Shown here: one piece after another, positions 1 to 63,371 of the stretch | Layout: each line of letters starts with the position of its first letter | Numbering within the stretch: the stretch's first letter is position 1 | Virus record (IMG/VR): IMGVR_UViG_3300046453_000026 | Span: 700-64,699 of that record | DNA from: a virus | Taxonomy: Duplodnaviria > Caudoviricetes | Reading direction: 5' to 3' (one strand) | Length of the DNA: 64,000 nt | Position numbers and translations under genes: made by a program | The notes under the pieces: model-generated | Told to the model about the DNA's origin: nothing | Databases searched by the model: none | What the model saw: the letters and a program-made list of their open reading frames with translations, nothing else

Positions 1-168
1 AGCACCTTCGGAAGCTTTCTCCTTTGCCCATGTTGATAGCTTCTTCTCTACCGATAGCATTGCGAGGGATACCTGCGTGTTAGCGTAGTGCTTAGCTCCC
101 CAGCGGAGGCCGTAACCTGCGCCGAACAGCAGGAGGACGCCCACAACGTACAGGACTGCATCGTTCAT
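1..168 (-). CDS. Small membrane protein, possible second holin (runs off the window)
   Basis: ATG at 168 with a GGAGGTG RBS. MNDAVLYVVGVLLLFGAGYGL is a TM helix. Lies directly after the endolysin; not in the ORF track. Confidence 0.55.
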   Translation of the reverse strand, partial: MNDAVLYVVGVLLLFGAGYGLRWGAKHYANTQVSLAMLSVEKKLSTWAKEKASEGA

Positions 169-189
169 AGTAATCACCTCCTTTTCCTT

Positions 190-1104
190 TTAGGTCAGGG
201 ATTGTCCTGAAGCCTTCCGAAGCGCGTTTGCGTATCCATGGATGCGCTCCTGCTTCGGCTTGTCCCCGTCTGCGGCGAACCACGCTGGGTTAAGCCATGT
301 CTGGATGATGACGTTCGCAGTGTCAGCAGCGAGCTTCCACGACGCAGGGGCCGGGAGGATACGAGCCGCACGCCGAACCTCTTCGGCCAGCCAGTGAACG
401 TAATCGCGGTCTTTGTTGGTCTTGGCCGCGAACCATGCAGGGCTGAGCCACATGTTGACGACGATGTTGGCTACTTCCGAAGTAAGCACAGCTTTTCCGT
501 ACTTGGCTTGCAGATCAGCTACGGAACCGTTGAACATGTTGACATCAAACAGGTTGCTAATGCCCTTCACCGCACCCCGGTCGGAGTACTGAAGGAATTC
601 CCAAGACGTCCAGCCGCCCCGGTCGCGCGGGCTTTTGTCACTATTGTAGTAGGCGTACCACAGAGGGTACGCAGACAGCTTGGATGCGAGCTTGCTGTCG
701 ATGAAGGAAGGGAAGGTGTAAACGATAGGACGGATGCCCATCAGCCCCTCTACGGTGCGAAGGAAGGCCAACCCGGCCTCTGCTGTATTGCTGCCGTTTT
801 CGATATCGAGCACAGGAGGAAGGTCAAGGTCGAGTGCCCGAATAACACTCACGAACTTCTTCGCTTCAGCGTTTGCTTCTGCTGCGGTTCCTGCGTTCAG
901 GTAGTGGTAAGCTCCGACAAGAATGCCGTTCTGCTTGGCTCCCCGGACGTTGGCCGCAAAGCAGTCGTCGGTGAAGGTAGTGCCTTGTGTAGCCTTCAGG
1001 AACGCAAAAGAGATACCGTCCGCCTTGGCCTTCTCGAAGTTCACAATCCCCTGCCAGTGACTTGCGTCGAGGCCTTTTGCCATGGAGCTGTTCCATTTTT
1101 GCAT
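190..1104 (-). CDS. Endolysin: GH25 muramidase with a duplicated C-terminal putative cell-wall-binding repeat
   Basis: GLDASHWQG, FLKATQG, GAYHY, VLDIE and LQYS motifs of GH25. Start moved to ATG 1104 using the RBS. Confidence 0.9.
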   Translation of the reverse strand: MQKWNSSMAKGLDASHWQGIVNFEKAKADGISFAFLKATQGTTFTDDCFAANVRGAKQNGILVGAYHYLNAGTAAEANAEAKKFVSVIRALDLDLPPVLDIENGSNTAEAGLAFLRTVEGLMGIRPIVYTFPSFIDSKLASKLSAYPLWYAYYNSDKSPRDRGGWTSWEFLQYSDRGAVKGISNLFDVNMFNGSVADLQAKYGKAVLTSEVANIVVNMWLSPAWFAAKTNKDRDYVHWLAEEVRRAARILPAPASWKLAADTANVIIQTWLNPAWFAADGDKPKQERIHGYANALRKASGQSLT

Positions 1105-1105
1105 G

Positions 1106-1435
1106 TTAACTACCGCCTTCCGAAGTTTGGTCACCCGCACGCCGCCGCACTACCAATGTCCCATGAAGCTCGGACACCTTGCGGTGCGTGTCATGCATGG
1201 TGGTGCGCACCTCTTGCTGGAACTGAATTTCGCGTTCATGCTGCCGCTCGAATACAGCCGATAGCTGCTCGAAGCTTTGTGTGTTGCGGTTAAGCGCCTC
1301 GGTACTGATGTTCTGCGCATCCGTGCTGTTCTTCCACTGCCCTATAAATAGCTGAAATACCTTATATCCTACAATCAGCACGGCAATACAGATTCCGGCT
1401 ATCCCTGCTTTCTCTAATCCCACAAGTTCCCCCAC
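1106..1435 (-). CDS. Holin-like protein (one N-terminal TM helix plus coiled coil)
   Basis: Hydrophobic GIAGICIAVLIVGY segment, immediately upstream of the endolysin, with an AAGGAGG RBS. Confidence 0.7.
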   Translation of the reverse strand: MGELVGLEKAGIAGICIAVLIVGYKVFQLFIGQWKNSTDAQNISTEALNRNTQSFEQLSAVFERQHEREIQFQQEVRTTMHDTHRKVSELHGTLVVRRRAGDQTSEGGS

Positions 1436-1500
1436 TGTTAACCCCTCCTTATTCGCATGATCCCCATTCCACTGCCCTCGTGACGTCCTATTTATACCAG

Positions 1501-1549
1501 AAAAAGGGCGCCCTCGGTAGACCTTTTTAGGGGTAGGATCGGCGCCCTT
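1501..1549 (-). terminator. Probable intrinsic terminator between tail-fibre and lysis genes
   Basis: AAGGGCGCC...GGCGCCCTT inverted repeat followed by a T-run on the minus strand. Confidence 0.55.
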
Positions 1550-7143: not shown

Positions 7144-8094
7144 CTACGACGTGGTTATCGTCGTACTTCCGAAGTTCCCTTTAACGTTGATTGTAGCTGA
7201 TGTTCCGACAACCGTCACGGTTAAATCGACATATACTGACGTACCTGCCAGCGACACCGTATTCAGGGAGACTTCTCCAAGTCGGTCATCGTACCCCAGC
7301 GTGTCGATGATATCCAGTTCCACCAGCTTGTTGATGTATGGGAGGTACGCCTTACCGATCAGCGTATGAAGGTTACTCCCATATGAGAGGTGCTTCGGAA
7401 GGCTACCCCGGCGCGTGCGCAGGCGATGGTTGACAGACTGGGCGATGTTCTCTACTCCTACGTGGGTTCCGATGTCTCCAAACCCGTCGTCTTCTAAGTC
7501 CCCATCCTCGGCCAGCGCGTAGTCTATTCCTCCGATAGCTGTGAGCACTTCGGAAGTGCTTATACTCTCGCTCCCTTCTATAGTTCCCAGCGCACTATCT
7601 GCCGGAAGGTAGACGGTCTGCCCGGTAACCAGCACTTTAGCATCCGTACCGTTGTCGATAGGGAGTTCGTTTCGGATATCGGTGAATCCGCCGTACACTC
7701 CCAAGTTGGTGTTTACTGTGCCCGCCACTACGATAGCGCTGGCGATGACGTTGCCAAATGTTCCGTAGCTAACACACCGCACGTACAGGTACCCTACGGG
7801 AGAGCCTGCCGGAATAACGGTATCCTCGACCACGGCGTAGGTCTTTACGATGCCCTGCGCATCCACTTCCGTAGTGAAGGTGGAGTTCTTCATGATGGTC
7901 AGAGAGGACGTATATAGGCCACGGGTGACCGTTATGAAGCCACTTGCGTACAGGGTCTCGACAGCTTGGTTGCTGGTTAGGAAATACGGATACTCCAGCC
8001 CGTTGTAGTCCGCTATCTCTGCCCACGTGATGCCGTACTTGGCTGCTAGGCCTTGAATGGAGTCTACGTCGGTCAGCGTGTGTTCAATAGCCAT
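7144..8094 (-). CDS. Baseplate protein with N-terminal LysM-like and C-terminal gp25/GPW-like domains
   Basis: DSIQGLAAKYGITWAEIADYNGL is LysM-like; NIAQSVNHRLRTRRGSLPKHLSYGS...DDR is gp25-like. Confidence 0.75.
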   Translation of the reverse strand: MAIEHTLTDVDSIQGLAAKYGITWAEIADYNGLEYPYFLTSNQAVETLYASGFITVTRGLYTSSLTIMKNSTFTTEVDAQGIVKTYAVVEDTVIPAGSPVGYLYVRCVSYGTFGNVIASAIVVAGTVNTNLGVYGGFTDIRNELPIDNGTDAKVLVTGQTVYLPADSALGTIEGSESISTSEVLTAIGGIDYALAEDGDLEDDGFGDIGTHVGVENIAQSVNHRLRTRRGSLPKHLSYGSNLHTLIGKAYLPYINKLVELDIIDTLGYDDRLGEVSLNTVSLAGTSVYVDLTVTVVGTSATINVKGNFGSTTITTS

Positions 8095-26336: not shown

Positions 26337-29300
26337 TCACAACAGTATCACAAGTTTTAACGCTTTGTCAGCACTTGCTGCCGGGAGCTTCGGAAGCTTG
26401 GTAACCACCCGTTCTGCCACTTTCGGCTTACGTGGTGCGGCAGTAACTCCGCGAGGTTTCCGGCGCTGATCGTTACGGCTTGTAAATCCTCGGTGCCCTC
26501 TTCCGATGGTGCCTTGCGTCTCGCCCAGCTTCGGATTCTTCTCGGCGCTGCGGGTGCTACCTGTCAGGTCCTCAACGCCCTTGATCTTAGCGTCCTGCGC
26601 GTTGAACATGAAATCCTCAACCGTGTTTGGCACGTGCATGGACTCCACCCGGACGCTGTTTGCTCTGCCGATCTGTGCGTGAGTCTTGGCAGAGTCGGAA
26701 CGTCGTACTCGCGCGGTGAACTGCGCCATCTTCTGCGGGTTCCAGTCTTGGTCGTAGTGGAACATGATGTGTGCATTACCGAAGTCGACGCCTTCTTTAC
26801 CCGCCGGGGACACCGTAGTCGCCCACAGACTACCTTGATTCTTAGCATAGTCGTGCTTGTTGCCTCGGAAGCCTACTTTCGTATCCTCCCGGTCGGTGGC
26901 CTCTCCGGTGAACTGCCCCTGCCCAAGGTCTTTGTAGCCCTGCTTGTGCAGGTCGGCAAAGATCGGGTGCGACTTCCTAACCTCTTTCAGTACGTTGTCG
27001 ATGATGTCCGTACCGAATGTGGTGTAACTCGACTTCACGACGACCTTTGGAACCATAGGTACCTGACCGCGCTTGATGCGGTCCTTGTTCTCATCCTGCA
27101 AGCCGTCGAGGTACTTGTGGATGCGGTCCTGTAGGTACTGCGCTTTTGGGTTCTCCTTGTGAAGTGGCGGCAGCAGTTTAGGACTGCCGTCCCCGTTCTT
27201 CGCGTAGCCTCCCTCACCGTCGCTTTCGTAGTACCGTTTGAACCCGTCCTTATCGACGACGTAGTGCTCGCCCTCTTTCAGGCCCTGTGCTGCCTTCTTA
27301 CCAGCTTCGGAAGTAGCCGCAGCGCTTTGCGCATCGGTCGCGCCAGAGTCCAGTGCATCGCCGCCACCAACAAACATCTTATGAGACAGTGGTGCGTTCA
27401 GGAATTTCGCCAGCTTCTGCATAGCTGTCAGGTAGTTGCCGCCGTCTTTCTTACCTTGGTCAATCCCGGTGGCTGCGGCGGTCGCTAGTTCTGCCTTCTT
27501 GGATTCAGGCAGGTACTTCGCTTCCAGCTCCTTGTACTTATCGTACATACGCTGCACGGACGGGCTGACGTTCTTCGGTGTGGTCGTGGTTACCGTGTAC
27601 TTCTCGCCGTTCTTGGCGTTGGTAACCTCCTTCTGCTCGGACTCGAAGTCCGTGATCGAGTGCTTCGTGCCGTAGTAGTTGTTCGTGTTGTGGTCCCGGC
27701 TGCGGTCGACCATATTCCCCATGAAGTCGGTCTTCGGTGATGGCTTATCCACTTCGGAAGCCCCTTCGAGATGCGGGAAGTGAATCTTCGACCCGTCGTT
27801 GTACGTCACGTCCTCGCCACCCCGGAACTGAATAACGTTCGCCATGATATCGCCCAGCTTCTCGGACATGGCAGGCTTGATGCCGACGATCTTGCCGTTC
27901 TTATCTTTCTGCATGTAGTTGTCCGTGAACTCCTTCATGCTCCCCAGTTCGTGCTTGCCTCCTGTTACGGTGTCAATCAGGGCGTAGGCTTCGCGCGCGT
28001 CGTTCTCCATTGGTGTACCGGACAGGCCCCATACGTTCTTGAACTTGTCGGTGGTCTCCGCCAAGGCAGTACCGCGCTTACCCTTCTGGTTCTTGAAGGC
28101 ATGGACCTCGTCAATCACGATGTTGTCATACATGCCGCTGTTGGCGAAGTGCTCACGGTTCCGCATGAACGTATCGTAGTTGACGATATGGAAGTCATGA
28201 TCTTCGGAAGCATGAGCTGATGTGTTCTTCTTGAAGCTCTTGAAGTCCACCGCTTCCTGCTCATTGCCCGCCTGACCCCACATGCTGCGGCCGCGCTCGT
28301 TCTTGACGCCCTTCAGGCCGGAACCGATGAATAGCGCTGTGCTGTTGGTGTGGGACCCGACTTCCTTACCCCAGTCAGACATGATGCCCTTCGGAGATAC
28401 GATCAGGGTCTTCTTCGGCTTACGCCCTGCTGCCAGCTCTTCTGCCTTGTAGTGCAGTCCGGCCACGACGCCCAGAATGGTCTTCCCGGTGCCCATGCCG
28501 TGCCCGGCGATTGCTCTTCCGCGCTTCCGAAGGTGGGCGGCTCCTTCAAGCTGCGTCCCGTAGAGTCCTTGGCTCGGGTTCATCAGGTAGGAGTGTTCGT
28601 TGAACTGCGCCTTGTAGTGCTTGTCGAATTCCGGGTTGCTCGTCTTGACCGTCGATGGCTGGAACTGATCACGAAGCTCCGGCACGCTCTCCGGTTTGCG
28701 GTCCTTGCGGGCAAAGTGGTCTTTCAGGTACTCCGACGCTTCGTGCGTCAGCGATATGCCTCTGCTGTCCTTGCCAAGGTCTTCACGCAGCTTTTCGAAC
28801 ATGGCGGTGGATATGCGAGCTGTCCCGTCATTCAGAACCCGGACGCCTGCGGATTCGACATGCTTCCGCATAGAATCGGGCACGTGTACCTCCAGCTCCT
28901 TGACGTACGAGCTGCTGAACTTCGCCATCAGCTCCTTGCCCGCTTTGGAACGTCCCAGCACCTTCGCCAGCCGCTTGTGCTGCTGGTCAGACAGCTCGAT
29001 GTCCTTCTGAAGGTTTCCGTCCTTATCGAACGCTCCTTGATTGACGTTAGCCTTCTGGAGGGCTTGTGTGAACAGGTCCTTGGCGAGGTCTGCCCGGCGC
29101 TGAGATTTTGGGTCTTCTCCCTTGAAGGCCTCCGCGATGTTCATCCGGTGCGCGCCAGATTTTGCTACTTTGACGACAGCGTTCCCGGAATCGGACAGGA
29201 TTCGACCTTCTTCCCTAGCTGCCTTCAGCTCGCCTTTGCCAAACATCCCAATGACATGGCCTTTGCCGTCTGTGACCTTATAGGTGTCGCCCTCAATCGA

Positions 29301-37005: not shown

Positions 37006-37282
37006 CGGTTTGCTCCCCCTTCTCATGCAAGATGGCAGGGACTGCGTTGTCCGTGTAGTAAGCATTGACATGACCTTCGCCCACGTCCACCTTCACCAGC
37101 TTTAGTAGCCCCTTGCGCACCAGCTTCTTTAGTCCGTTCTTGCTGATCATATCCGACTCTGTAAGCACGATTCCTGCGACAGGCATCCCGGTGGATACCA
37201 CCATGCCGTCAATGGCGGTCAGAACGAAGCCCTCGCGGGATTGTCTGAATTGCAGCGTGCCCTCGGTCTGTGGGTAATTCAT
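36821..37282 (-). CDS. Hypothetical protein overlapping the start of the polyvalent gene
   Basis: AAAGGAG RBS; the 3' part overlaps the next gene in another frame. Confidence 0.5.
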   Translation of the reverse strand: MNYPQTEGTLQFRQSREGFVLTAIDGMVVSTGMPVAGIVLTESDMISKNGLKKLVRKGLLKLVKVDVGEGHVNAYYTDNAVPAILHEKGEQTDATGREQPEHHQQPGGTSEGTEKHDDQTTDDEDEGKICGEWYRQYDKEDDEDNEDPSQGGS

Positions 37283-44405: not shown

Positions 44406-46226
44406 TTAGTAAAAGAATTCTGACCCGCCGTCGTCGATTACCTTCCGAAGGGCAATAGTCAGGTAGTTCATTGCATGCCCAAAGTGGTCACCACCCGGCA
44501 GGGTGCCTACCCGCTGCTTGATGACTTCCTTCTTCGTCTTCTCGTCGGTCTCGATGTCCCGGACGAGCACGAGATTGGTAACGTGTAGGATGAAGGTCTC
44601 AAAGAGGGGGTTCTGTGCTACCCACGCCGGGATGACGAATCGACCGTCCCGGAACATCTTCGCCATAATCATCAGGGTCATGGTGCGGTCTACGCTTACC
44701 TTGGCGTCATCCTCGTTCCATACGTCCTCTATCGTCTTGGTGGCATCGGTTGACAGCGATGGGTAGAAGCAGCTGAACACCTTCCCGGGGAAGTCCTGCA
44801 TCAGCTCCCAGTTACGGTCCTTACCATAACCAGCATCGAACACCCCACGACGGGCGTCCCACTGCCGCAGCTTCTCGCCTGTCTTGCGGATGTGGGGGTT
44901 ATCCTTGCGGCCGTCATGCTGCTCTGCCTCGTCCTCCTTGATGTCCCAAATGTCGAGGATGATGATCTTGTCCGGGTTGTCCGGGTGACGCATACCGTTA
45001 GCTCCCCACGAGCGGTTACCCCAGTCGACGCCTTGGGCGACGTTGTCTCTTCGGAAGTCGTAGGGGCTTGTCATGCTATTGTCGATACACCGCATGATGT
45101 CTCCCCGGCTGACCATGACGTTGTCCCCCAGATAAGGTCGACCGATGACGTAGTTCTCGAATAGCTGGTCGAGGGCATAGTCTTCCTTCTTCTTCATGAG
45201 CTGGGTAGCGCTTATCCACGGGCATATAAGCTGACTGATCTGATAGCCCCGGACATCCTTCCGGTAGTCATACAACGGGCGCCAGAATCCACGGACCCGG
45301 GTCTCGTCACTTACAAACTGGTGACACTTAGGGCATACATAGGCGAAGGTGTCAGTCTCCCGGATGAAGCTGTTCGACAGGTGCAGGCCGTGGTTAGCGT
45401 TACCGTAGCTGTCGCGCTTCAGGTCGACCACGCACTTCGGAAAGTCGTGGATAAGGGTCATCCAGTGATTACAGTGAGGGCACTTCATGAACCAGTGCTG
45501 TTCATCGCTCTTGCTGAAGCTTGCGTTCACGCCTACACCCGGCAGCGATGGCGTGGAGATATCCCGCCGCCAGCCGTAGGCCGACGAAGACAGAGTTTCG
45601 TTAAACGCTATCATGACGTTAGGGTGCATGCGGTCGATCTCGTCAAACCGCACCACGTCAACGTCGATACCTTCCCCTGCTCGTGCGGTGTGGCCGGAGC
45701 GGAAGAATATCCAATGGTCTGCTCCCATCTTCCGAAGCCGGACATTGTCGACCGGGTCTTCCCCGGGCTTCTTCTTGCCTGTCACTGCATCGTACCCCAT
45801 GCGGTCCCGCACATACGGGCTGTCCTTCATAACCGCATCGACACGAGTCTTCGAGAAGTCCGCTACTTGGTCGAAGGTTGGGAAGACATACGCCTGCTTG
45901 GTATAGGGGTGTGTGTCCCCGAACCATAGCAATTCCCGTACCTCGTTCTCGCTGGCTCCACACTGCCGGGACTTCTGCATGGCCTTATGTGGGTGCTGGT
46001 CGTCGAGCGGTTGCTGTAGGAACTGACGCTGCCCACGTAGGCCGATACGCCAATCATCGGATGGTATCTCTATCGCCTTCCGAAGGTCGAGCGAGCCATC
46101 CTCCCGGAGCTGTTCGAAGCGATAAGGCTTACCCCGGAGCTGGGTATGGTACTGAGACCATATGCTGGGACGCTTGTTGATCTGATACTGAAGGAGCTGG
46201 TCCTGTGTCAGTCCGTCGACAGCCAT
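44406..46226 (-). CDS. terL: Terminase large subunit
   Basis: KSRQCGASE Walker A, FDEIDRM Walker B, ISTPS motif, GVDWG nuclease and DHFGHA. Confidence 0.92.
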   Translation of the reverse strand: MAVDGLTQDQLLQYQINKRPSIWSQYHTQLRGKPYRFEQLREDGSLDLRKAIEIPSDDWRIGLRGQRQFLQQPLDDQHPHKAMQKSRQCGASENEVRELLWFGDTHPYTKQAYVFPTFDQVADFSKTRVDAVMKDSPYVRDRMGYDAVTGKKKPGEDPVDNVRLRKMGADHWIFFRSGHTARAGEGIDVDVVRFDEIDRMHPNVMIAFNETLSSSAYGWRRDISTPSLPGVGVNASFSKSDEQHWFMKCPHCNHWMTLIHDFPKCVVDLKRDSYGNANHGLHLSNSFIRETDTFAYVCPKCHQFVSDETRVRGFWRPLYDYRKDVRGYQISQLICPWISATQLMKKKEDYALDQLFENYVIGRPYLGDNVMVSRGDIMRCIDNSMTSPYDFRRDNVAQGVDWGNRSWGANGMRHPDNPDKIIILDIWDIKEDEAEQHDGRKDNPHIRKTGEKLRQWDARRGVFDAGYGKDRNWELMQDFPGKVFSCFYPSLSTDATKTIEDVWNEDDAKVSVDRTMTLMIMAKMFRDGRFVIPAWVAQNPLFETFILHVTNLVLVRDIETDEKTKKEVIKQRVGTLPGGDHFGHAMNYLTIALRKVIDDGGSEFFY

Positions 46227-47072: not shown

Positions 47073-47852
47073 CTACCCGACATCCTTAGTCCCCGTCAGG
47101 TTACGAATGATATCGTTCCCCATGGCGTCGAATTCGGCCTCCAGTGCCTTGCGCTCTTCCTCCGTCTTGGACTTCAGAAGCTCGGACACATCTAAGCTTG
47201 CCGTAGTTACAGTACCGCTAAGGTTCGTGTTCTGCTCGACATGCTGCTGCTCGACGAACTCGCCTTTCTCTTGGGCGAGCTGCTTCATCCCGGCCAGTAC
47301 TCCTGTAATCAGGGAGCCGATAGACTTGTCAGTGATTGGTATCAGATCAGCGTTATCCACGATCTTCTCGAAGAGCTTACGAGTCAAGCGGGACAGCCCT
47401 GCAATACGCTCGCGCTGGCTGGCGAAGCCAGTCTCTAACACGAGGGCGTCTATGTGCTCCCGGAACTCCGGGTGCTGAAGCCAAGCGTAGATAATGTGCC
47501 TGCTGGCAATGCCTACGTCCGGGTCCTCTACTACCTGTGACACGGGAAAGCCCAGTGCGATAAGCTCTGCCGCCTTCATCCGGCGCTCATTCCACGTCCA
47601 CACCTTCGGAATGTTAGGAGCGTAGCTGGCTGGCACGGTGATCTTGTACTTCTTCCCCTTGGAGCTGGCAACCTCCAGTGTGATGTACTCCTGCGCTTTC
47701 CGGTGCAAGAACTCCGGCGTCGCCACTTCGGGTAATTCCTCCGTCGGTGGCGGCTCAGGTAATGCGGTTGTTCGTGCGAATTTTAGGTTCTCTGTGCCGG
47801 GCACCTGTACTGGCTTGACGGCCTTCTTGATCTGGCTCGTGATGCGGGTCAT
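47073..47852 (-). CDS. Probable terminase small subunit (HTH)
   Basis: WNERRMKAAELIA.G..V......GIASRHIIYAWLQHPEF HTH; first gene of the packaging operon. Confidence 0.6.
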   Translation of the reverse strand: MTRITSQIKKAVKPVQVPGTENLKFARTTALPEPPPTEELPEVATPEFLHRKAQEYITLEVASSKGKKYKITVPASYAPNIPKVWTWNERRMKAAELIALGFPVSQVVEDPDVGIASRHIIYAWLQHPEFREHIDALVLETGFASQRERIAGLSRLTRKLFEKIVDNADLIPITDKSIGSLITGVLAGMKQLAQEKGEFVEQQHVEQNTNLSGTVTTASLDVSELLKSKTEEERKALEAEFDAMGNDIIRNLTGTKDVG

Positions 47853-51463: not shown

Positions 51464-52078
51464 TTACAAGCTAAGCTGCTGCTTTAACGAACGGTTGATA
51501 AACTCGGCAGCAAATGCGGCCTGCGCCTCCTGCTGTGGATCAATAGGATTTCCACTCTTACTGATCAGCACGACAACCCCCTGAGTGTCGTCTTCGATAC
51601 CACCAATGCGGCGCAGGTGGTAAGAGTGGGAAGGGATCGTACCCCATCCGCTATCGAGGTCAAGCTCACCCGGGTCGCATAGCTTCAGGTACGCGCGGTC
51701 TCCTTCAATCGCACTGATCGTGCATTTAACACTATCCGTTCTTAAGAAGTCACTGATATCCTCCCCTACACTACTGCCCGAAGGGATACGCTGAAGCCCG
51801 CGAGTGACTATTACCTCGGCCGTGTCTGTAATGACGACCGCGCAATCGCTTGACTGGAACAGGGACTCTGCAATTGTGGAGGCGTGGTCCGCAATATTGC
51901 CTACAGTGCTATACCGCCGCATTAGTACAGAACCATCCTTACCCAGCATGATCTCCAAGGGGTCACCCTCCCGCGCGTGCATAGCGCGGCGGATATCTTT
52001 AGGGATTACGACGCGTCCAAGGTCGTCGATACGGCGTACAATCCCTGTAGCTCTCCATTCATTTGATGCTGTTGACAT
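51464..52078 (-). CDS. spoVT: SpoVT-like transcription regulator (AbrB domain plus GAF-like domain)
   Basis: ATGIVRRIDDLGRVVIPKDIRR...REGDPLEI N-terminus; C-terminal G.VVLISK...A..AAEF as in SpoVT. Confidence 0.85.
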   Translation of the reverse strand: MSTASNEWRATGIVRRIDDLGRVVIPKDIRRAMHAREGDPLEIMLGKDGSVLMRRYSTVGNIADHASTIAESLFQSSDCAVVITDTAEVIVTRGLQRIPSGSSVGEDISDFLRTDSVKCTISAIEGDRAYLKLCDPGELDLDSGWGTIPSHSYHLRRIGGIEDDTQGVVVLISKSGNPIDPQQEAQAAFAAEFINRSLKQQLSL

Positions 52079-52933: not shown

Positions 52934-53482
52934 TTAAGGTCTTCGGAAGTTAAGGGTGTGCTGCGGCCAAGCGCTCCGCGTGGCTTCGGGTTCGTTCTTC
53001 TCCCTCCAGCGCCTGTCGAGCTGTTCACATTTCGCCTCCATCGCAGATGCGAGGTCAATGCCTAAGTAGTCTGCCGCGACTGCGATGTTCCACACCATGT
53101 CAGACAGCTCGTACCCGATAAGCCTCAGACGTATGTCGCGCGGCCCATCTTCAATGCGGACCCCTTCTAACCGGATAATCTCCTTGGCTACTTCTCCAAG
53201 TTCGGAAGTAAGGTGCAGCATGCGGTTCGCTATGGGTACGTCGTACAGACCGTGCTGCTTGGCTGATTCAGCTACCCGCGCCTGATACTCACTCATTCCA
53301 TACTTCGGAAGTTCGGCACTGCCACTCTTCGGAAGTACAGTGGGTAAGCAGTCAGAACAATAGTTGATTACCATGTCCACGCCGTGGGACTCTCCGCATA
53401 CCTTGCATGTGCCACTTGGCACCGGGTGCCCTACCCATTCGTGCAGAGGCTTGCACTTCTCGCAGTTACATATCTCTTTCAT
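52934..53482 (-). CDS. MazG-like NTP pyrophosphohydrolase with N-terminal Zn-finger
   Basis: LTSELGEVAKEI...ELSDMVW..A...GIDL motif. Confidence 0.8.
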   Translation of the reverse strand: MKEICNCEKCKPLHEWVGHPVPSGTCKVCGESHGVDMVINYCSDCLPTVLPKSGSAELPKYGMSEYQARVAESAKQHGLYDVPIANRMLHLTSELGEVAKEIIRLEGVRIEDGPRDIRLRLIGYELSDMVWNIAVAADYLGIDLASAMEAKCEQLDRRWREKNEPEATRSAWPQHTLNFRRP

Positions 53483-53637
53483 TCTTGATCGTCCTCCTTT
53501 GATTCGTCCGTATTATGTTCGCTGTTGTACAGCCTCTCTGCCCGCTCCCGGGCGTCGGCCTTGCTGAAGGCAAATACGTTATACTTTTCGCCCTTGTGTA
53601 TCACGGTGTACACACGCATCGGTAGCCACATGTTCAT
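53479..53637 (-). CDS. Small hypothetical protein (52 aa, not in the ORF track)
   Basis: Fills the gap with ATGA overlaps on both sides. Confidence 0.4.
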   Translation of the reverse strand: MNMWLPMRVYTVIHKGEKYNVFAFSKADARERAERLYNSEHNTDESKEDDQE

Positions 53638-55538: not shown

Positions 55539-56281
55539 TGTGCTGCCACCTCTCTATGGTTATCAATGTAGCTGTTCACGAACTGCTGTACATACTGGCC
55601 GCTCACGTAGCAGGCGATATTCAGGTACGTACCGTTCGCCTCTTTCATTACTGCATACGTAACGCCGACTACTTGCCCGCTGTAGTTAAGGATCGGACTG
55701 CCGGAGTTTCCGGGGCGCTGCATGATGCTAACCAGCCCCGTAGCAGGGTTCTCGATGATCCCTTCGTTGCGGCGCGGGTAAGTGCTACCCATGCTCTCCA
55801 GTGGGAATCCCATTGCTGCAACGGGTGTCCCCGGAGCATCGACGCCGAATGCGAAGGGTGTCACATACTCGCCATCCTTCGCGTCAATCTCAAGCAGCGC
55901 TAAGTCTCTTGCAGTATCCACAGCGACGACGTTGGCGCTTATTGCTACTTTGCGGTGGTCCTTATCTCCGGTGTTGTAGTACAGATTAATGGCCGTCCGG
56001 CCATGGATATCTACCACATGACGGTTCGTTACGAGCAGCGTCTTGGTTACAAAGAACGCGGTGCCCAGTGTGCTGTCGATGGCGGTAGTCACATCGTCAA
56101 TAGGTCTCGCGGACATCACATGTACTTCCGCTACGCTACCCCGCAGCGCATCGAGCGCCGGATAGGCCGCCTCTCCTACGACTGTTCCTGATACGACAGT
56201 ACCTACGACGGGGTCAGCACATACGGTTTGACCTGCGAGCAGGATAGAGAGCATAACGGATAGGATAATTTTCTTAAACAT
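55535..56281 (-). CDS. Secreted trypsin-like (S1) serine protease
   Basis: Signal peptide MFKKIILSVMLSILLAG; catalytic triad TNRHVV / DLALL / GNSGSP. Confidence 0.88.
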   Translation of the reverse strand: MFKKIILSVMLSILLAGQTVCADPVVGTVVSGTVVGEAAYPALDALRGSVAEVHVMSARPIDDVTTAIDSTLGTAFFVTKTLLVTNRHVVDIHGRTAINLYYNTGDKDHRKVAISANVVAVDTARDLALLEIDAKDGEYVTPFAFGVDAPGTPVAAMGFPLESMGSTYPRRNEGIIENPATGLVSIMQRPGNSGSPILNYSGQVVGVTYAVMKEANGTYLNIACYVSGQYVQQFVNSYIDNHREVAAQ

Positions 56282-57175: not shown

Positions 57176-57647
57176 TAGCGTCAGCCTTCGGAAGTGCTTC
57201 GAGGTCTTCTTGGAGCCTCCGCAGATCGTCTGTGATATCCCGCGTGCGCTGCATAATCAGCAGTACCACCGGGACCATATCCGTCTCGAAGGCACTCAGG
57301 GCGTTGTACTCGTCCAGCAGCGTGTTAATACCGTCTTGCAGCATAGAGCGCTTGTACTCGATATCGCGCTTCGGAAGTATGTACCCTGTGATCTGCCGGA
57401 TGGCCTGTTTCTTACCTTCTAGCTCTTTCTCCAGCCGCTGGCGCTGCGTCACAAGATAGGCACCCTTACGCTCCAGCTCTTCGTTACCTTCGTTTGTGCG
57501 AATGAAGTATTGGTGGATGCCGTCCTCGATCATGACCACATCCGGCAGCACCCGCTTGATGGTCTCGAACCTCTCCTTGGCGAGTTCGAGATTAGCCATC
57601 TCAATGCTGTGGAAGGTGCGCAGGCGTTCGATATCATCTATCGCCAT
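57168..57647 (-). CDS. Hypothetical coiled-coil protein
   Basis: Coupled ORF; start at 57647 or 57656. Confidence 0.5.
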   Translation of the reverse strand: MAIDDIERLRTFHSIEMANLELAKERFETIKRVLPDVVMIEDGIHQYFIRTNEGNEELERKGAYLVTQRQRLEKELEGKKQAIRQITGYILPKRDIEYKRSMLQDGINTLLDEYNALSAFETDMVPVVLLIMQRTRDITDDLRRLQEDLEALPKADANG

Positions 57648-58038
57648 AGGGGCCATCTCCCTTGTATCCGCGCGGGCGCATTACCCGACCGCTGGTGGCA
57701 CCGTACATACTGTCAATCATCCGGTTGGCCCGCGCCTGCACCATACCTTTATGTGTGGCCGAAATAACAGCTCCTACCATCTGCCCGTAGTTGTTGTTTT
57801 CTGGAGGTGAGATCAGCTTGTTAAGGACCTCTTGCAGCTTGGCCGCTCCTTCGTCATCTCCCACTGCCTGCATGCTCTCGATGGACTCTTTGGTCATTTC
57901 AACCACGCCCTTAATGAGCGGATGGTCTGAAAGTGTGCCTTCTGCCAGCTCGTTAAGAAGTTGTACCGCTTGCGCGGAGAGGGTGACGGTCAGTGTGCCG
58001 TCCTCGTTCAGGGTCCAGCTCTTGCTCTTGTCACTCAT
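57634..58038 (-). CDS. Hypothetical protein
   Basis: AAAGGAG RBS. Confidence 0.5.
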   Translation of the reverse strand: MSDKSKSWTLNEDGTLTVTLSAQAVQLLNELAEGTLSDHPLIKGVVEMTKESIESMQAVGDDEGAAKLQEVLNKLISPPENNNYGQMVGAVISATHKGMVQARANRMIDSMYGATSGRVMRPRGYKGDGPYGDR

Positions 58039-58333
58039 AGTGGATAGTCTCCTTTGGGGCTTCCGCCCTTAGTTCTGTAGTAGCTTGGATTAGCACCTGT
58101 TGCTGCTCTGTCACGGTTAGTAGCCGGAATCGTGGTACTTCATTTCCTTCTGCATCCTGCACCGTTGTATGGAAGGACTTCTCGGACCGTACCCATACCT
58201 GCGGCTTGTCAACGTGCATATTTTGATACACGACTGTAGCCTCGCCGTCAGCTTCGCGCTTCGCGTCTGCTATAAGCACCCGATAGTACTCCTTACTCTT
58301 ATAATGCTGGTACACGCTGCCCGGGTAGATCAT
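58031..58333 (-). CDS. DUF1653-like protein
   Basis: G.VYQHYK...YRV...A......VVYQ......WVR....F.......PRF motif. Confidence 0.8.
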   Translation of the reverse strand: MIYPGSVYQHYKSKEYYRVLIADAKREADGEATVVYQNMHVDKPQVWVRSEKSFHTTVQDAEGNEVPRFRLLTVTEQQQVLIQATTELRAEAPKETIHYE

Positions 58334-58953
58334 TAGCCTTTCTCCGGCGCAGAGGGCGGTGTGGCAGCAGGTGCATTAAAGGACAGCGCGCCGGACATCA
58401 GCATGGAACCGATAGCCTTCGTGACCAGCTCTTGCAGCATCCCGTCTACCCGCTTTTCGTCGAAGTTGGCTGCGACCCGCTCCCTGTACTCCTCAGTCAC
58501 GTATTGTGGGATAAGCTTCCGAACCTCGACTTCAACGAGCGGCTTCAGGTCGTCGGTAGCTTTCTGCCACGACTTGCGATAGTCGTCTCCATAATTGCGC
58601 ACAACTTCCTCAGCCATCGCCCGGATGGTCTGTCCACTACCTGTGTTGAGGCCCGCCGTTTTCATAGCATTATTGAAGTGTTCCGCAAGGATTTCTGCTC
58701 CCCACCCGGAGAACGAACGCTTGTGTCCGTTCCACACGTTAGCCTCGTCTATCTTAATGGCAGCGTCAATCATCTGCTGCACCTTACGCTCAGCCAGCTT
58801 AGTAGCCTGCTCTTCCACCTTAGCTGCGATGTGCGGGTTGTTCAGCCACGCGTCCAGCATGGCGCTCGCAAGATTTTGCTTGATCTGCGCGGTAGGCAGT
58901 TCCCCATGTACGAACCCGATCAGTTCTTCAATGCTCAGTGTAATTTTACCCAT
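58333..58953 (-). CDS. Hypothetical protein
   Basis: AAAGGAG RBS. Confidence 0.55.
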   Translation of the reverse strand: MGKITLSIEELIGFVHGELPTAQIKQNLASAMLDAWLNNPHIAAKVEEQATKLAERKVQQMIDAAIKIDEANVWNGHKRSFSGWGAEILAEHFNNAMKTAGLNTGSGQTIRAMAEEVVRNYGDDYRKSWQKATDDLKPLVEVEVRKLIPQYVTEEYRERVAANFDEKRVDGMLQELVTKAIGSMLMSGALSFNAPAATPPSAPEKG

Positions 58954-59011
58954 TATTTCCAGCTCCTTTGATTTTGTTTGATGGGCAGGTTGCTACCCTG
59001 CCCAGTCTTCG

Positions 59012-59320
59012 CTACTCCAGCTCTTCTTCTCCGTCATCGTCCCAACTACCCGCGCCTTCGTCCTCTGCCTCTTCCTGCTCTGTCACCCATGTGCGGATGA
59101 TCTCGCGTTCCCGTTCGCCCGGTTTGAGGCTGCTGTTGAAGCGGTTTACTACGCCTGCCGCCCGCGCTGTCAGAGCATTACCGACCTCGTCATCGGACAG
59201 AGAACCATCATTGATGCTCTCTTCTTCGATCTCCACCAGTACCTCTTCCCACGAAGCGGAGGCCTCAAGCTCTTTAGTCTTGGACTTCCGAACCTCACCG
59301 TGCACTACGAATACCTTCAC
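59012..59320 (-). CDS. Hypothetical acidic protein
   Basis: Coupled ORF. Confidence 0.5.
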   Translation of the reverse strand: MKVFVVHGEVRKSKTKELEASASWEEVLVEIEEESINDGSLSDDEVGNALTARAAGVVNRFNSSLKPGEREREIIRTWVTEQEEAEDEGAGSWDDDGEEELE

Positions 59321-59937
59321 TCCTGCCCGCTCCCTTTAGCTTCCACGGTCTCCATGGCGCTCTCGATTTCTGTTGCTCCCTCTGCCCCGTCTGAGGCGTC
59401 GGCTATCTGCTGCATCTCTTCAGTCAGCATTCCCATGGTGCGCATACCTGCCTTATTAAAGGCCTCTTCTAAACTTGCCAGCGTCCTCATGGTATACACT
59501 CGGGTCTCCAGCGAACCGCTCAGTCTGTGCATTGCAGTATGAAGGTTCTCAACCTCTTTAAGTAGCTGCGGGTTGCGCAGCACAAAGCTCTTCAGCGGTG
59601 CCGCCATGGATACAAAGTCCTTATGCTCCCGGCGAATCTTGCGATTTTCTTTAAGCTTCAGAAGTATGCCGTGCGCATCCTTGCGTGGAAAGTCGGCCAG
59701 CTCGACCGCGTGGGTCAAGTCTCCATATTCAAGGTCCATCGCATGCACTTGGTCATGTGCTGCGTCATGCAGGATCGGTACCTTAACCAGCGCATGGTGC
59801 AGCATGTCAATCAGCATCAGAAGCCCACCTGCACCCTTCAGAACCTCGGCGGGTATCGCGGTCTTCATTGCCTGCTCTCCCTGCCGCTTACTCTCTACCA
59901 GCCTACGTCTTGCCTGCCCCATCTCAATCAGTCCCAT
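59317..59937 (-). CDS. Hypothetical coiled-coil phage protein
   Basis: DLTHAVEL...LKENRKIRREHKD...R.Y..R pattern. Confidence 0.6.
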   Translation of the reverse strand: MGLIEMGQARRRLVESKRQGEQAMKTAIPAEVLKGAGGLLMLIDMLHHALVKVPILHDAAHDQVHAMDLEYGDLTHAVELADFPRKDAHGILLKLKENRKIRREHKDFVSMAAPLKSFVLRNPQLLKEVENLHTAMHRLSGSLETRVYTMRTLASLEEAFNKAGMRTMGMLTEEMQQIADASDGAEGATEIESAMETVEAKGSGQE

Positions 59938-61526
59938 CTATCCAGTTTGTATGAGGCTGTGCCTGTTGCTGCTGTCACTCGTATAGTAGCGTTAAGTGCC
60001 GCGCCACTTTGTAGGCGGATACCACATGCCGACGCTTCTTCGTATCCACCAAGCTGTGCGTTCTTCGAATACGATTCGATAGTGGAGCGTACTTCCCGAA
60101 GCTCGGACTTCAGCGTCTCAGGGAATAGCGCAATCCCTGCGCGTCCGGCGCGGTTGTCCCTCGCTCCGTCAAGTATGAAGATAACGGCCTTGCCTTGGTG
60201 CGCGTTCTCCTCGTACCACATGGACGGCTGATATGTGACGCCTGTTACCTTGCACCATCCACTCGTGAGTCCCCATTGAGACGGTGCAGAGCCGCCGCTA
60301 TATACGTACCAGTTAACTGGGTTGCGGCGTTCCTCTGTATCCCATTGCAGGATAGGCGGCGCGTCCGCGTTGACAGCGGTCAGGAGCGCGGTGAAGGCAT
60401 CGGTTCCACTACGCACTTGGTACTCGATAACTTCAGCGTTCGGAAGCACGGTCTCCAAGAACTTACGCCATGTCATAGTGACCGTTGGGAGCGTCATCGC
60501 CTTGGCTGGGGTTGGAGCGTCCTTTGCCTTCAAGTGGCCGAACAATCCGCCAGCCGCTTGCTCGTTTTTCGGAAGTGCAGGCTTCCATATCGTTTCGATC
60601 TCGTCCAGCCTTGCGAATCGGCGTTCTAGTGATGGTGCAAGTCCCAGCTTCTCGAATATCTTCTCGGCTTGGGCGATGTTCCCGGCGCTCGGTGCAGCTT
60701 GTGGGCGCTGGTACTGCAATGGGTGCATCTTGGCAGAGAAACGCTTCTTCACGCTCTCAAACTCCATGCCGGACTGAATGTCGTCGAGCAGGGTCCCGAT
60801 CATGGAGCTTCTGACGTGGGCGAATCCAGCCGGAGCAGTAGCCACCGCCAGCCATACTGCGTTGTTGCGGGTCTTGAGGTTCTTGACATGCACACCGCTT
60901 TCCGCCAGCTTCAGGAACCATTCTGCCACGCCCAGCGTCTTCTCACTACGGTACAGCACCTCACTCTTTAGAAGCGTGACCGCTTGCTGTATGGTTGGCA
61001 GGCTGTACGACTGAATAGCTTCCTGAAGCATCCGATAGTCTTCGCGCTTCTCAGCCATCTTCTGGCCTGCCGTCATAAGGCGGCTTGTGTACACGGACTT
61101 CGGAATCTGGGTAACAGACATGTGTGTCCATTCGCCTGTCTGCGGTTGTCCCCATACCTTTTCTTCCGACAGGAACACTCCTGTCACCTCGGCCTTCTTG
61201 ACCGCCTCAATCACTGCATTCACGGACGGCAGGAAGAACGTTGGCGCGTTCAAGTCCCACATGACAGGCTTTATCGTACTGTCCGCCTCGATGGTCACCA
61301 GTCCGCCGAAGCGGTCGACGAAGTTCGCGCAGGCTCGGCAGGTGTAGTACTGTCGAGCTTCGGCGGGCAGGTTGTGTAGGAACAGCTCGAACAGGTTGCC
61401 CGCGTCTGTTGTAAACAGGCGTGTTCCCTCCGTTACGTTCGCGCTGTAGTTGTGCCTAACCGCCTGCTCCAGCGCCGGATAGTTGTGGTTATTCTCATTA
61501 GGGGCCGTCCCCGTAGTCATTGTCAT
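59928..61526 (-). CDS. Conserved-looking phage protein of unknown function (532 aa)
   Basis: Long RBS-supported ORF with CRAC..F..RFG and PLQYQRPQA motifs. Confidence 0.7.
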   Translation of the reverse strand: MTMTTGTAPNENNHNYPALEQAVRHNYSANVTEGTRLFTTDAGNLFELFLHNLPAEARQYYTCRACANFVDRFGGLVTIEADSTIKPVMWDLNAPTFFLPSVNAVIEAVKKAEVTGVFLSEEKVWGQPQTGEWTHMSVTQIPKSVYTSRLMTAGQKMAEKREDYRMLQEAIQSYSLPTIQQAVTLLKSEVLYRSEKTLGVAEWFLKLAESGVHVKNLKTRNNAVWLAVATAPAGFAHVRSSMIGTLLDDIQSGMEFESVKKRFSAKMHPLQYQRPQAAPSAGNIAQAEKIFEKLGLAPSLERRFARLDEIETIWKPALPKNEQAAGGLFGHLKAKDAPTPAKAMTLPTVTMTWRKFLETVLPNAEVIEYQVRSGTDAFTALLTAVNADAPPILQWDTEERRNPVNWYVYSGGSAPSQWGLTSGWCKVTGVTYQPSMWYEENAHQGKAVIFILDGARDNRAGRAGIALFPETLKSELREVRSTIESYSKNAQLGGYEEASACGIRLQSGAALNATIRVTAATGTASYKLDRWD

Positions 61527-61530
61527 TGGT

Positions 61531-61674
61531 TTAATTCACTCCCTGTGCGTAGTCAATATCGAACTCATACATCTGCGACAAGTACTGCCGCTTAATCACC
61601 AGCCATGCACACCCGCTCTCATGGTGTGCCATAACGAATACGATCTGATAAGGCTCGCCGCGCACGTTGACCAT
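61531..61674 (-). CDS. Small hypothetical protein (47 aa, not in the ORF track)
   Basis: GGGAGG RBS before ATG 61674. Confidence 0.4.
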   Translation of the reverse strand: MVNVRGEPYQIVFVMAHHESGCAWLVIKRQYLSQMYEFDIDYAQGVN

Positions 61675-61775
61675 GCCGCCCTCCCTATACCTACCCCAGC
61701 GTTCCAAGATGGATACGCTAGGAATGTAGGTGAAGGCGGGATCGTACGGCCTAAAGCGTTGGTGCTCGGTGTCCT

Positions 61776-62726
61776 CTACTTTGGGGAGGGTGGGGCCGGA
61801 CGCCTACGTGCAGGTGGCGTAGCAAGCGGGCTATTAAGGGCATCTATGGCCTGCTGCCGCTCTGCCATATCCTCTGCTGTTAGCTGCTCCGGCTCCCCAC
61901 CGCTTAGTCCGCCCAGCAGCTCTTGCGGGACCGGAGGCGAAGAACGTACAGGCTTACCCATTACCTGCTGCTGAAACGGCTTACCGACGTTTGTACGCTT
62001 GGTCGCCCGGCCGTTTGCGCTATGGTACACCGTTTCATGTCCTTGTGGCTTCAGGGTAACCTCCAGCGGGTAACTTCCCGGAGTCGGTTCCCTGTACTGC
62101 CGTTTGTAGCCCACCACGTTAATGTACGGCGCGACTTCTTCCTGCTCGTCCATAAGCAGCAGCAGGTCAACCAGTGCCATTGTGTCCTCCATTGCGGAGT
62201 GAGCGCCCTCCAGCGAAACGCCGTAGTGCGCGGCCATCGCTGTGAGCTTATGACTACCCTTCGGAACCCGGTCGCGCGCGATGGTCAGCGGGCACAGGAT
62301 GTCGATATACTCCAGACTCCCAAAGTGCCCCATCTGCCGCTCCAGCATGTTTTTCAGTACGGTGTAGTCAAAGGTAGCGTTGTATGCTACAAGCACCGGG
62401 TCCTCTGCTGTCTCTTCCGGCTCGTTCTCCGCTCCAAGTATCATATCCCATAGGATGCTCGCGGCCTTGTACTCCGACATACCCTTCAGAAGGTCGGCGC
62501 GGCTATGATGCCCATTCTCTAAGGCTTGAGACCAGCCCGTCTCCGGGTGGTCCATTGGATTATAGTAAATCAGGGTGTTGAACATGCTAGTGACTTCGCC
62601 CTCTACTACCCGGACGGCGCACACCTCAACGGGCCGCTGCGCCATCAGATCGAGCTTACCGTCCGGGGTCTGCGCCCCGTTAGTTTCGAAGTCGAGTACA
62701 ATCAGTGTCCGTGGAATCACGATCAT
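61776..62726 (-). CDS. DEDDh 3'-5' exonuclease (DnaQ-like)
   Basis: VLDFETNG, VAYNATFD and HSAMEDT motifs. Start moved to ATG 62726. Confidence 0.88.
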   Translation of the reverse strand: MIVIPRTLIVLDFETNGAQTPDGKLDLMAQRPVEVCAVRVVEGEVTSMFNTLIYYNPMDHPETGWSQALENGHHSRADLLKGMSEYKAASILWDMILGAENEPEETAEDPVLVAYNATFDYTVLKNMLERQMGHFGSLEYIDILCPLTIARDRVPKGSHKLTAMAAHYGVSLEGAHSAMEDTMALVDLLLLMDEQEEVAPYINVVGYKRQYREPTPGSYPLEVTLKPQGHETVYHSANGRATKRTNVGKPFQQQVMGKPVRSSPPVPQELLGGLSGGEPEQLTAEDMAERQQAIDALNSPLATPPARRRPAPPSPK

Positions 62727-63045
62727 CCGACCTCCCCTTGTCCTCAATTTGATCGTACACAATATAATTGTCGTCCTCTCCAAGTACGTAGCGGACGCCA
62801 TCTTTGACGTAGCCCCTGCACCACTTGACGAAAAGGTCGCGCGGTACGCCGCTGGTGTGGCGGCAGTTCGGGGTAGTGTTGTACAGTACATACATCCATG
62901 TGGTCGCTACGATGTGGCGGCGACGCACTCCGCCGTTGTGAAACTCGGTGACCCCTTCATCCACTAACTTAGCGAGCTGGGGCCAGCTCAGGCTTTTAAG
63001 TTTGCGACGTGCACTCTCTGCTGCGTTCTTTTGGGTGGCGGTCAT
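62680..63045 (-). CDS. Hypothetical protein
   Basis: Coupled ORF. Confidence 0.45.
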   Translation of the reverse strand: MTATQKNAAESARRKLKSLSWPQLAKLVDEGVTEFHNGGVRRRHIVATTWMYVLYNTTPNCRHTSGVPRDLFVKWCRGYVKDGVRYVLGEDDNYIVYDQIEDKGRSDDRDSTDTDCTRLRN

Positions 63046-63371
63046 TTCGATCTACCCACTTCCGAAGTAGGTGGCGGAGGCGGCTCAATGCCTAACGCGA
63101 TGCGCAATCTCCGGGTCGCTACGTCTACCCGGTATGTCGCGATGTTCATATCGTCGATTGCTACGTTGATGTAGGCGGACTCTGCTTGGTCGAAGTTCTT
63201 CTCAGCTCGCCGGAGTTCCCGGTTGGCCTCAAAGAATTCAATCTGCGCGTCCATGATCCCGTCGTGCGCCGGATTTTTGCCCTTCGGAAGGTCGGACAAT
63301 GCTCCGATTTTTGCCTTGTGCTGATCAATACCGAACAGCCCCGCCATGCTACCGAAAACGCCTTTTACCAT
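63042..63371 (-). CDS. YaaL/DUF2508-like protein
   Basis: EA.RE...A..NF..A....I..AI.....A..R pattern. Confidence 0.5.
   Translation of the reverse strand: MVKGVFGSMAGLFGIDQHKAKIGALSDLPKGKNPAHDGIMDAQIEFFEANRELRRAEKNFDQAESAYINVAIDDMNIATYRVDVATRRLRIALGIEPPPPPTSEVGRSK

Follow-up and report, generated by a model that had tools for sequence, protein, structure and literature searches.

The DNA analyzed here, a window of 64,000 nucleotides covering bases 700-64699 of the single linear 64,699-bp viral record IMGVR_UViG_3300046453_000026 (G000), carries a dispersed array of a 9-bp palindrome, CTTCSGAAG (S being C or G), at positions 6..63290. The array comprises 95 copies of CTTCSGAAG, or 119 when any centre base is allowed (CTTCNGAAG, hereafter the word). 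G000 is classed as an incomplete virus, 67% complete (IMG/VR, CheckV), and its GC content is 0.52-0.57 all along. It is a phage, as it encodes a large terminase, a portal, a tail lysin and virion polyvalent proteins. Its gene set was obtained by a crude greedy call of 74 open reading frames (ORFs), 59 of them on the minus strand and together giving 95% coding sequence, in which some ORFs are placed on the wrong strand.

The first-pass annotation of this DNA had estimated about 95 copies of CTTCSGAAG against roughly 0.5 expected. The exact count in the window is 95, one per 674 bp, and 100 dinucleotide-preserving shuffles gave a mean of 0.47 copies and a maximum of 3, confirming both figures. 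The variants it had mentioned are also present in the window (24 copies of CTTCWGAAG, W being A or T, and 126 of TTCSGAA). The whole record contains 99 copies of CTTCSGAAG, and the next commonest 9-mers (41 and 37 copies) are overlapping pieces of the same word. Markov models of orders 1-4 expect 0.2-6.0 copies per centre variant, compared to the 39 and 60 observed, and the enrichment of the word in G000 is roughly 200-fold over chance.

The word was then followed in related genomes, which were found with the large terminase (TerL; 44406..46226, minus strand, PF05876). Megablast against a phage collection gave no match to a close cultured phage, and the best cultured relatives of the G000 TerL were those of SPO1-like Bacillus phages, with 30-32% identity. 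TerL searches of IMG/VR retrieved relatives at 69-79% identity to G000. The comparison set consists of five genomes with GC contents of 43-57%, namely the partial G000 and four complete ones. Three of these have direct terminal repeats: G001 (105 kb, GC 0.45) has 127 S-centred copies, G002 (94 kb, GC 0.57) has 107 and G003 (99 kb, GC 0.55) has 145, with 12, 3 and 8 copies, respectively, of the reversed control; in G000 the reversed control GAAGNCTTC occurs 7 times. The fourth, G604 (102 kb, GC 0.43, TerL 71%), has 79 copies of CTTCNGAAG, and the corresponding counts are 123 in G000 and 133, 134 and 161 in G001, G002 and G003. In all five genomes CTTCNGAAG is by a wide margin the most frequent palindrome of the 4-N-4 form, the runners-up having 7-21 copies. 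A scan of viral contigs revealed, among the matches listed, at least 111 stretches in which two copies are separated by 22-52 bp; these included six new loci where copies are both dense and dispersed, all encoding proteins of the same clade, and the remaining listed stretches were isolated pairs or tandem iterons. A scan for three copies caught mostly tandem iterons rather than genomes with an iterated palindrome. The G000 stretch was found in 10 runs labelled rhizosphere metagenome, a near-identical strain is present on a 106,517-bp contig, and the word recurs in independently assembled records from many samples. Enrichment of CTTCNGAAG is thus a trait of one clade of phages of roughly 100 kb with direct terminal repeats.

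The anatomy of the word is strict. Each of the 24 one-base variants has 0-9 copies in G000, compared to 99 for the word itself, and the variants pile up at the two outermost positions (29 copies, versus 15 at the six inner positions). Arms with a wrong outer pair (T/A, A/T or G/C) have no copies in G000, against 123 for C/G. The centre had been described as C or G, and S is indeed the commonest choice in G000 (G 60, C 39, T 15, A 9), but the base is free, and in G604 W centres prevail over S centres, 50 versus 29. The flanks had been said often to extend the symmetry. The two examples quoted, at 7544 and 10704, do exist, the former being a copy extended to a 17-bp palindrome (AGCACTTCGGAAGTGCT, 7544..7560), but such extension occurs at the chance rate: flanking positions ±1, ±2 and ±3 are complementary in 0.24-0.29 of the G000 sites, compared to a background of 0.25, and the four relatives are similar, indicating that the signal is confined to 9 bp. 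The unit is therefore a strict 4-N-4 palindrome, CTTCNGAAG, of which both arms are needed. This requirement points to duplex DNA being recognized by something of two-fold symmetry whose footprint is about 9 bp, and not to a strand-specific signal.

As the first-pass annotation had stated, the copies use all three coding frames. In G000 87 of the 99 copies of CTTCSGAAG are genic, with 39, 32 and 16 in frames 0, 1 and 2, with both centre letters, and the other 12 do not lie wholly within a called gene. Shuffling synonymous codons within genes left 17.8 ± 2.2 copies (maximum 27) and shuffling the codon order left 12.9 ± 0.8, in both cases including the 12 non-genic copies, which were never shuffled. 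The synonymous shuffle is conservative, since its codon pool is already loaded with the codons of the word, and even so the observed counts exceeded the expected ones by 3.6-5.8 times in all five genomes. As the enrichment persists under a codon-preserving null model, codon usage alone does not account for the word.

Where a peptide is compatible with the word, the word is usually how it is spelled: this holds for 62-93% of such peptides in G000 (40 of 43 L[PR]K in frame 0, 31 of 34 in frame 1 and 16 of 26 in frame 2) and for 47-93% across the five genomes. In nucleotide alignments, sites of G000 are retained as the word at 13 of 31 places in G003, 11 of 33 in G002 and 4 of 16 in G001, compared to a background of 6-8% (8 of 9 bases). 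Protein-guided codon alignments, with a background identity of 0.11-0.20, revealed that where the peptide is conserved between G000 and G001, G002 or G003 all eight fixed bases agree in 9/10, 10/12 and 7/8 cases, respectively, so that the synonymous-site conservation that had been proposed as a check is found. Between G003 and G001 or G002 the figures are 24/28 and 13/14, and against the GC-poor G604 they drop to 3/8 and 10/19. Of the 36-68 motif windows aligned between two genomes, only 5-25 are common to both; together with the steady density of the word this indicates that positions turn over while density is held. Variation within populations is too scarce to weigh here: none of the 40 variant places listed (of about 440) falls within a copy, where only 0.6 would be expected, and none of the 78 differences from a near-identical strain (L001, 99%) does, where only 1.5 would be expected. 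L[PR]K tripeptides occur 2.2-4.8 times as often as in residue-shuffled proteins (z 4.9-12). The word is selected at the DNA level strongly enough to bend both codon choice and protein sequence.

These data bear directly on the view that the word has no function at the DNA level and is a by-product of peptide motifs or codon-pair bias, or an artefact of assembly, a view that we consider to have practically no chance of being right. It could draw on the fact that frame 0 (L-[P/R]-K) is the commonest, with 39 of the 87 genic S-centred copies, and on a conserved LRKLPK peptide at the C-terminus of the primase-MCM protein of the clade, whose coding sequence in both G003 and G002 consists of two abutting copies of the word. 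Copies are found in every frame and with either centre letter, however, the enrichment outlasts both kinds of codon shuffle, copies outside called genes are 1.5-2.2 times denser than those within genes, and the word is found in independently assembled records and in the 10 metagenome runs. The frames, the shuffles and the non-genic density refute a by-product or an artefact. The primase-MCM peptide reads G-LRK-LPK-F, with the abutting copies at 18478-18495 in G003, and at this site G001 has one copy of the word and a TTA variant. In frame 0 the word encodes L-x-K, and 21 of 78 such tripeptides in G000 precede S or A (27%, compared to 17% after any K); the hydrophobic-x-K-[S/A] pattern in the window proteins, which resembles a protease site, may in part be a by-product of the DNA palindrome.

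The density of the word is about 1.3-1.9 copies per kb in the four GC-richer genomes, or one site per about 0.5-0.8 kb, and 0.8 per kb in G604, or one per 1.3 kb. In the four complete genomes counts in 5-kb bins are under-dispersed (variance/mean 0.35-0.51, P 0.005-0.045), and the coefficient of variation (CV) of the gaps is low in G003 (0.72) and G604 (0.76). Genes unique to one genome have 0.47-1.38 copies per kb, compared to 0.82-1.99 in core genes. No clustering of the word was seen near genome ends or a putative origin. In the window two non-genic copies lie 24 bp apart between small called ORFs (53303..53335), and a 5.7-kb stretch (57378..63058) is poor in the word, with no S-centred and two W-centred copies, a lack of S copies with a probability of about 2e-4 at the mean density of the record. 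The GC content of this stretch (0.558) matches the rest, and it contains several small genes without relatives in the clade; it is possibly DNA acquired more recently. Some non-genic copies, at 41376-41420 and 46730-46775 of the window, make up one of the two arms of a larger, GC-rich inverted repeat (GGGCTTCGG ... CCGAAGCCC), after which the coding strand continues into a T-rich tract; these structures resemble terminator hairpins.

Even coverage of all four complete genomes could be expected of a signal acting in cis on the chromosome, such as a Chi-like element or roadblock against helicase-nucleases, a site for primase-MCM loading or for a RuvC-like resolvase, or a terminase recognition word. 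On a linear genome with direct terminal repeats a palindrome reads alike from either end, and the machinery is at hand. The core non-structural genes of the four complete genomes encode a 590-aa SprT-HTH protein, SNF2, primase-MCM, PolA, a RuvC-like protein, Cas4-like and RNase T-like exonucleases, a 147-aa protein and several small proteins. In the window the RNase T-like exonuclease of this DNA-processing set is found at 61776..62891 (minus strand, PF00929) and has orthologues in all four complete relatives, and a core 259-aa protein, probably the small terminase, is found at 47073..47852 (minus strand), with orthologues in G001, G002, G003 and G604. On the other hand, Chi, KOPS/SRS and primase sites are short and asymmetric, whereas the strict need for both arms points to duplex recognition and not to scanning of a single strand; in known systems one packaging site per genome is enough; and the word does not cluster near ends or origin. 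We regard a role in cis as decidedly improbable.

Candidate hosts were sought through a full-length homologue of the sporulation regulator SpoVT in the window (51464..52078, minus strand), which has an AbrB-type N-domain (PF04014) and SpoVT_C (PF15714). It shares 35-40% identity with the cellular SpoVT proteins of Paenibacillus, Cohnella, Fictibacillus and Clostridia, and a 77% homologue is present on a 106,723-bp contig. A scan of genome contigs with the SpoVT protein alone gave no match; with an alignment as query, loci were obtained in 80 Bacillota genomes. The search for host clues found no tRNA genes. The homologue makes an endospore-forming member of the Bacillota the most likely host, and the hosts of the clade are probably endospore-forming Bacillota of soil and rhizosphere. 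As blastp found no match to the SpoVT homologue in G001-G003, the gene is lineage-specific and is not a clade-wide reader of the word.

The word is rare in the candidate hosts. Five named spore formers have 9-178 copies in 2.9-8.5 Mb (0.003-0.021 per kb), in four of the five fewer than the reversed control. The maximum, with tables read by eye, was about 0.035 copies per kb among 401 Bacillota genomes drawn evenly and about 0.043 among 201 genomes of the order of Paenibacillus sp. P25, the two draws overlapping. In the phages the S-centred word reaches 1.1-1.5 copies per kb, no less than 25 times its density in any Bacillota genome sampled, so that a general bias of the host, which had been named as a possible source of the enrichment, is not seen among these candidates.

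A host factor with few chromosomal sites of its own, whether a regulator or a nucleoid, segregation or forespore-trapping protein, might nevertheless be recruited or titrated by the phage array. The phage SpoVT homologue indicates an interaction with sporulation, no phage protein that reads the word was found, and phi29 provides a precedent, since its entrapment in spores uses host Spo0A and Spo0J sites. The inner TTCNGAA coincides with the core of the CodY box, whose consensus, AATTTTCWGAAAATT, has AT-rich arms around TTCWGAA, and among the literature matches listed two papers on CodY contain TTCNGAA. The word is not a CodY box, however, as TTTCWGAAA occurs 0-2 times per genome, compared to 79-161 copies of CTTCNGAAG. 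A host factor would also have to be conserved across the presumably different hosts of phages with GC contents of 43-57% and the same word, and in most of the sampled Bacillota the word has fewer copies than its reversed control (four of the five named genomes and, by eye, most rows of the larger tables), which gives no hint of a regulon in the host. Recruitment of a host protein therefore appears rather improbable.

The first-pass annotation had also considered the word as a modification target and suggested a search for a phage methyltransferase, which did not bear this out. PF01555 was present in one of the four genomes searched (G001 only, G604 being outside the scan), PF00145 and PF02086 in none of the four and PF05869 and PF02384 in none of the five, and tblastn found no homologue of the G001 enzyme in the other four genomes, G604 included. 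The PF01555 methyltransferase of G001, at G001:40068-40934 on the minus strand, has a DLPY motif. G001 is also alone in having a second iterated word, with a spacer of 0, CTTCGAAG, which occurs 68 times compared to 14.3 under the synonymous shuffle; TTCGAA occurs 187 times against 92 expected, and the half-word CTTCG/CGAAG 1319 times against 539 (2.4-fold). The occurrence of this second word in the genome with the PF01555 enzyme is the only hint of a link to methyltransferases.

Ordinary palindromes are purged from several of these genomes. In G000 14 of the 64 six-bp palindromes are absent (among them CCGCGG, CTCGAG, GAGCTC and AGATCT), with a total of 606 compared to 1001 expected from base composition, and in G003 20 of 64 are absent, with 641 compared to 1523 expected. 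G001 lacks 19, and the purge is much weaker in G002 and G604, which lack four and two, respectively. This suggests that the genomes behave like unmodified DNA under restriction pressure, and against such a background a palindrome enriched 200-fold looks all the more deliberate.

The purge counts, along with other data, against the proposal that the word is the target of an enzyme. According to this proposal a host or unrecognized phage methyltransferase, or a base-modifying or nicking enzyme, recognizes the inner TCNGA or TTCNGAA, and the word is upheld by linked repair bias or by selection for modification, as in Elhai's HIP model. The form of the word is consistent with it, since interrupted palindromes as compact as these 9 bp, and with flanks that carry no information, are typical of type II recognition. 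So are the bias of the one-base variants to the first and last positions and the coincidence that the sole genome with PF01555 is the sole one with a second iterated word. Yet no methyltransferase is common to the clade, the strong purge suggests largely unmodified DNA, and a host enzyme coupled to repair should mark the host as well, whereas about 600 Bacillota genomes have no more than about 0.04 copies per kb. Sites are conserved between orthologues, which speaks for selection over replenishment, an argument that Xu et al. (PMC5861425) also make for HIP1. On balance an enzyme target is unlikely.

Overall, the frames, the codon shuffles and the conservation of sites uphold the view of the first-pass annotation that the word is a DNA-level signal and neither a peptide motif nor codon bias; its suggestion of a modification target is disfavoured in the phage-encoded form, as none of the methyltransferase families searched for was common to the clade. 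We tentatively favour, with a confidence somewhat short of even, the interpretation that the copies of the word together form an array of recognition sites, spanning the whole genome, for a phage-specified factor with two-fold symmetry. A compact factor of this symmetry would dock on double-stranded DNA at each copy, and the phage would express it early or bring it in with the virion. So dense an array would set phage DNA apart from that of the host, which is at least 25 times sparser in the word, and the factor would act along the whole chromosome, coating or guarding, silencing or organizing the phage DNA. We infer the binding of the word by a protein, the phage origin of that protein and the effect of its binding. 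A narrower form of this interpretation, possible although doubtful, is that a virion-delivered or other phage protein reads the word as a chromosome-wide self-mark, guarding the phage genome and ignoring host DNA. With a site every 0.5-1.3 kb such a protein might block nucleases or defence systems, or silence the genome during sporulation of the host.

Several results weigh against a phage-specified factor. Among the clade proteins examined none was identified as the reader of the word. Measured between their centres, the arms are separated by only 5 bp, which suits restriction or modification enzymes or ribbon-helix-helix proteins better than classical helix-turn-helix (HTH) dimers, and the outer-position bias of the variants resembles the HIP1 pattern tied to methyltransferases. 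In G000 the spacing is Poisson-like, with a gap CV of 0.96 and a variance/mean of 0.80 in 5-kb bins that is not significant. The host comparison covers sampled candidate genomes. Three of the candidate readers add to this side. The core 147-aa protein has a winged-HTH fold in the G003 model (pLDDT 90.8), with the winged-HTH domains of CodY, CadC/ArsR and MarR as best PDB matches at weak E values of 0.01-0.05; it is a candidate by fold only, no copies of the word lie in the promoter region of its gene, and the nearby double copy is the LRKLPK coding sequence of the MCM C-terminus. An actin-like ATPase (ParM/Alp-type, ALP_N/MreB-like_C) and a 103-aa adaptor, ribbon-helix-helix by eye, form a type II partition-like cassette in G003 (40931-42316; L011 931-2316), G002 (66933-68240) and G604 (36523-37751, with two in-frame TAA codons). 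This cassette has its own TGTTTAAC-type repeats upstream, its ATPase is absent from G001, and the word is dispersed and not clustered at the partition genes as a parS/parC-type centromere would be. Finally, the ORFs beside iterons with a 21-bp period in unrelated contigs revealed no DNA-binding family in common with the clade, their one match being a non-DNA-binding accessory ORF of G604. In one such contig (L062, 3830-4040) the word lies within a 17-bp palindrome (ATTTCTTCGGAAGAAAT) present as 3-4 repeats with a 21-bp period in two neighbouring non-coding blocks; similar ATTTCTTCGGAAGAAAT-type arrays occur in L026, L029, L032, L040, L046, L049 and L059 and look like an iteron or operator array.

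Two further groups of proteins were considered as readers. The 259-aa probable small terminase has 55 homologues, several with precomputed HTH_23 assignments, and its AlphaFold model (pLDDT 69) has small terminases as best PDB matches (Sf6 gp1, E 0.04, probability 0.96). As a putative DNA-recognizing protein in all five genomes it is a candidate by predicted fold and position only. In the polyvalent proteins no methyltransferase or sequence-specific DNA-binding domain was found. The larger, of 2325 aa (26337..33314, minus strand), is a virion protein with an SNF2 ATPase (PF00176 at residues 1602-1805) and a candidate DNA-acting cargo; scanned in pieces at E <= 1, it gave SNF2 and Helicase_C matches and no methyltransferase domain. 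A sub-threshold Sigma70_r3 match (E 4e-4, 20.8 bits compared to a cut-off of 25.3) covers its residues 390-416 (window 31815-33314, minus strand). The second, of 1161 aa (33586..37071, minus strand), has LPD1 (PF18796), and its translation contains a ParB/Srx-like DGHHR stretch, with no Pfam ParB match at E <= 1.

The window also encodes a portal, a tail lysin of 1446 aa that combines M23 and glucosaminidase domains, a trypsin-like protease and a LysM protein. In G003 the large terminase gene is split by an insert of about 1.3 kb (52908-53519 and 54853-55902, L011), and the gene of the 2325-aa polyvalent protein is divided (65857-70629 and 71507-73687), its parts of 1590 aa and 726 aa lying on either side of a 213-aa ORF; introns, inteins or homing elements might account for these splits. 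G003 also encodes, together at 34679-39448 (L010 14679-19448), a 396-aa sigma-70 family protein, a Replic_Relax protein and a 902-aa TraG/VirD4-like coupling ATPase, a group present in G001 as well. This group amounts to a conjugation-like module in a phage whose genome has direct terminal repeats.

The first-pass annotation had not recognized the word as a described phage signal, and a literature search, supplements being outside it, revealed no occurrence of CTTCNGAAG or CTTCSGAAG. Literature matches for 'iterated palindrome' with phage genomes were only on cyanobacteria, and those listed for CTTCGGAAG were primers and constructs only, all unrelated. To our knowledge the published highly iterated palindromes are all in cellular chromosomes, and a function for them has been lacking for about 30 years. 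The closest likeness is to the cyanobacterial HIP1 (GCGATCGC). Both are short over-represented palindromes, genic and intergenic and in all frames, both have sites conserved between genomes beyond background and under selection, and both show the outer-position bias of variants without a known reader or function. HIP1 and alternate cyanobacterial palindromes are described as 15- to 300-fold over-represented (Xu, Lawrence and Durand 2018, PMC5861425; Elhai 2015, PMC4390886), and according to Elhai 2015 the one-base variants of HIP1 are biased to outer positions and linked to methyltransferases. Unlike HIP1, the word of this clade is on a virus of about 100 kb and not on a cellular chromosome, has a free centre base (4-N-4), was not seen enriched in the sampled candidate host phylum, has no cognate methyltransferase common to the clade and stands against a purge of other palindromes. 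The HIP1-like periodicity of 10-90 kb cannot exist on phage genomes of 94-105 kb, which have an even 5-kb coverage instead.

Among phages, the stoperators of Cluster A mycobacteriophages are comparable in that many copies of one short site lie in coding and non-coding DNA. Stoperators are asymmetric sites of 13-14 bp, biased in orientation relative to transcription and numbering about 20-35 per genome, that are read by one phage protein, the immunity repressor, with a genome-wide effect. The word of this clade is instead a strict 9-bp palindrome in 79-161 copies with no repressor identified. As a compact interrupted palindrome with no flank information it also resembles restriction sites of the type TCNGA, which lies within the word and is the interrupted-palindrome type II site of Hpy188I. 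Phages normally avoid such sites, whereas the word is enriched about 200-fold and no cognate enzyme was found. DNA uptake sequences and Chi-type words are asymmetric and enriched in the chromosome of the cell itself, whereas the word is palindromic and not enriched in the sampled cellular genomes.

The word is thus an extreme and compact case of an iterated palindrome, with eight fixed bases, an enrichment of about 200-fold, near-saturation of the compatible peptide contexts and a visible distortion of the proteome. The small genome and the short list of core DNA-binding proteins make the question of its reader directly testable. If a reader does mark phage DNA as self, this would represent a new principle in phage-host conflict, a self/non-self system encoded in the sequence of unmodified viral DNA and served by a previously unknown family of readers, and the word would also be a useful handle for recognizing the clade in metagenomes.

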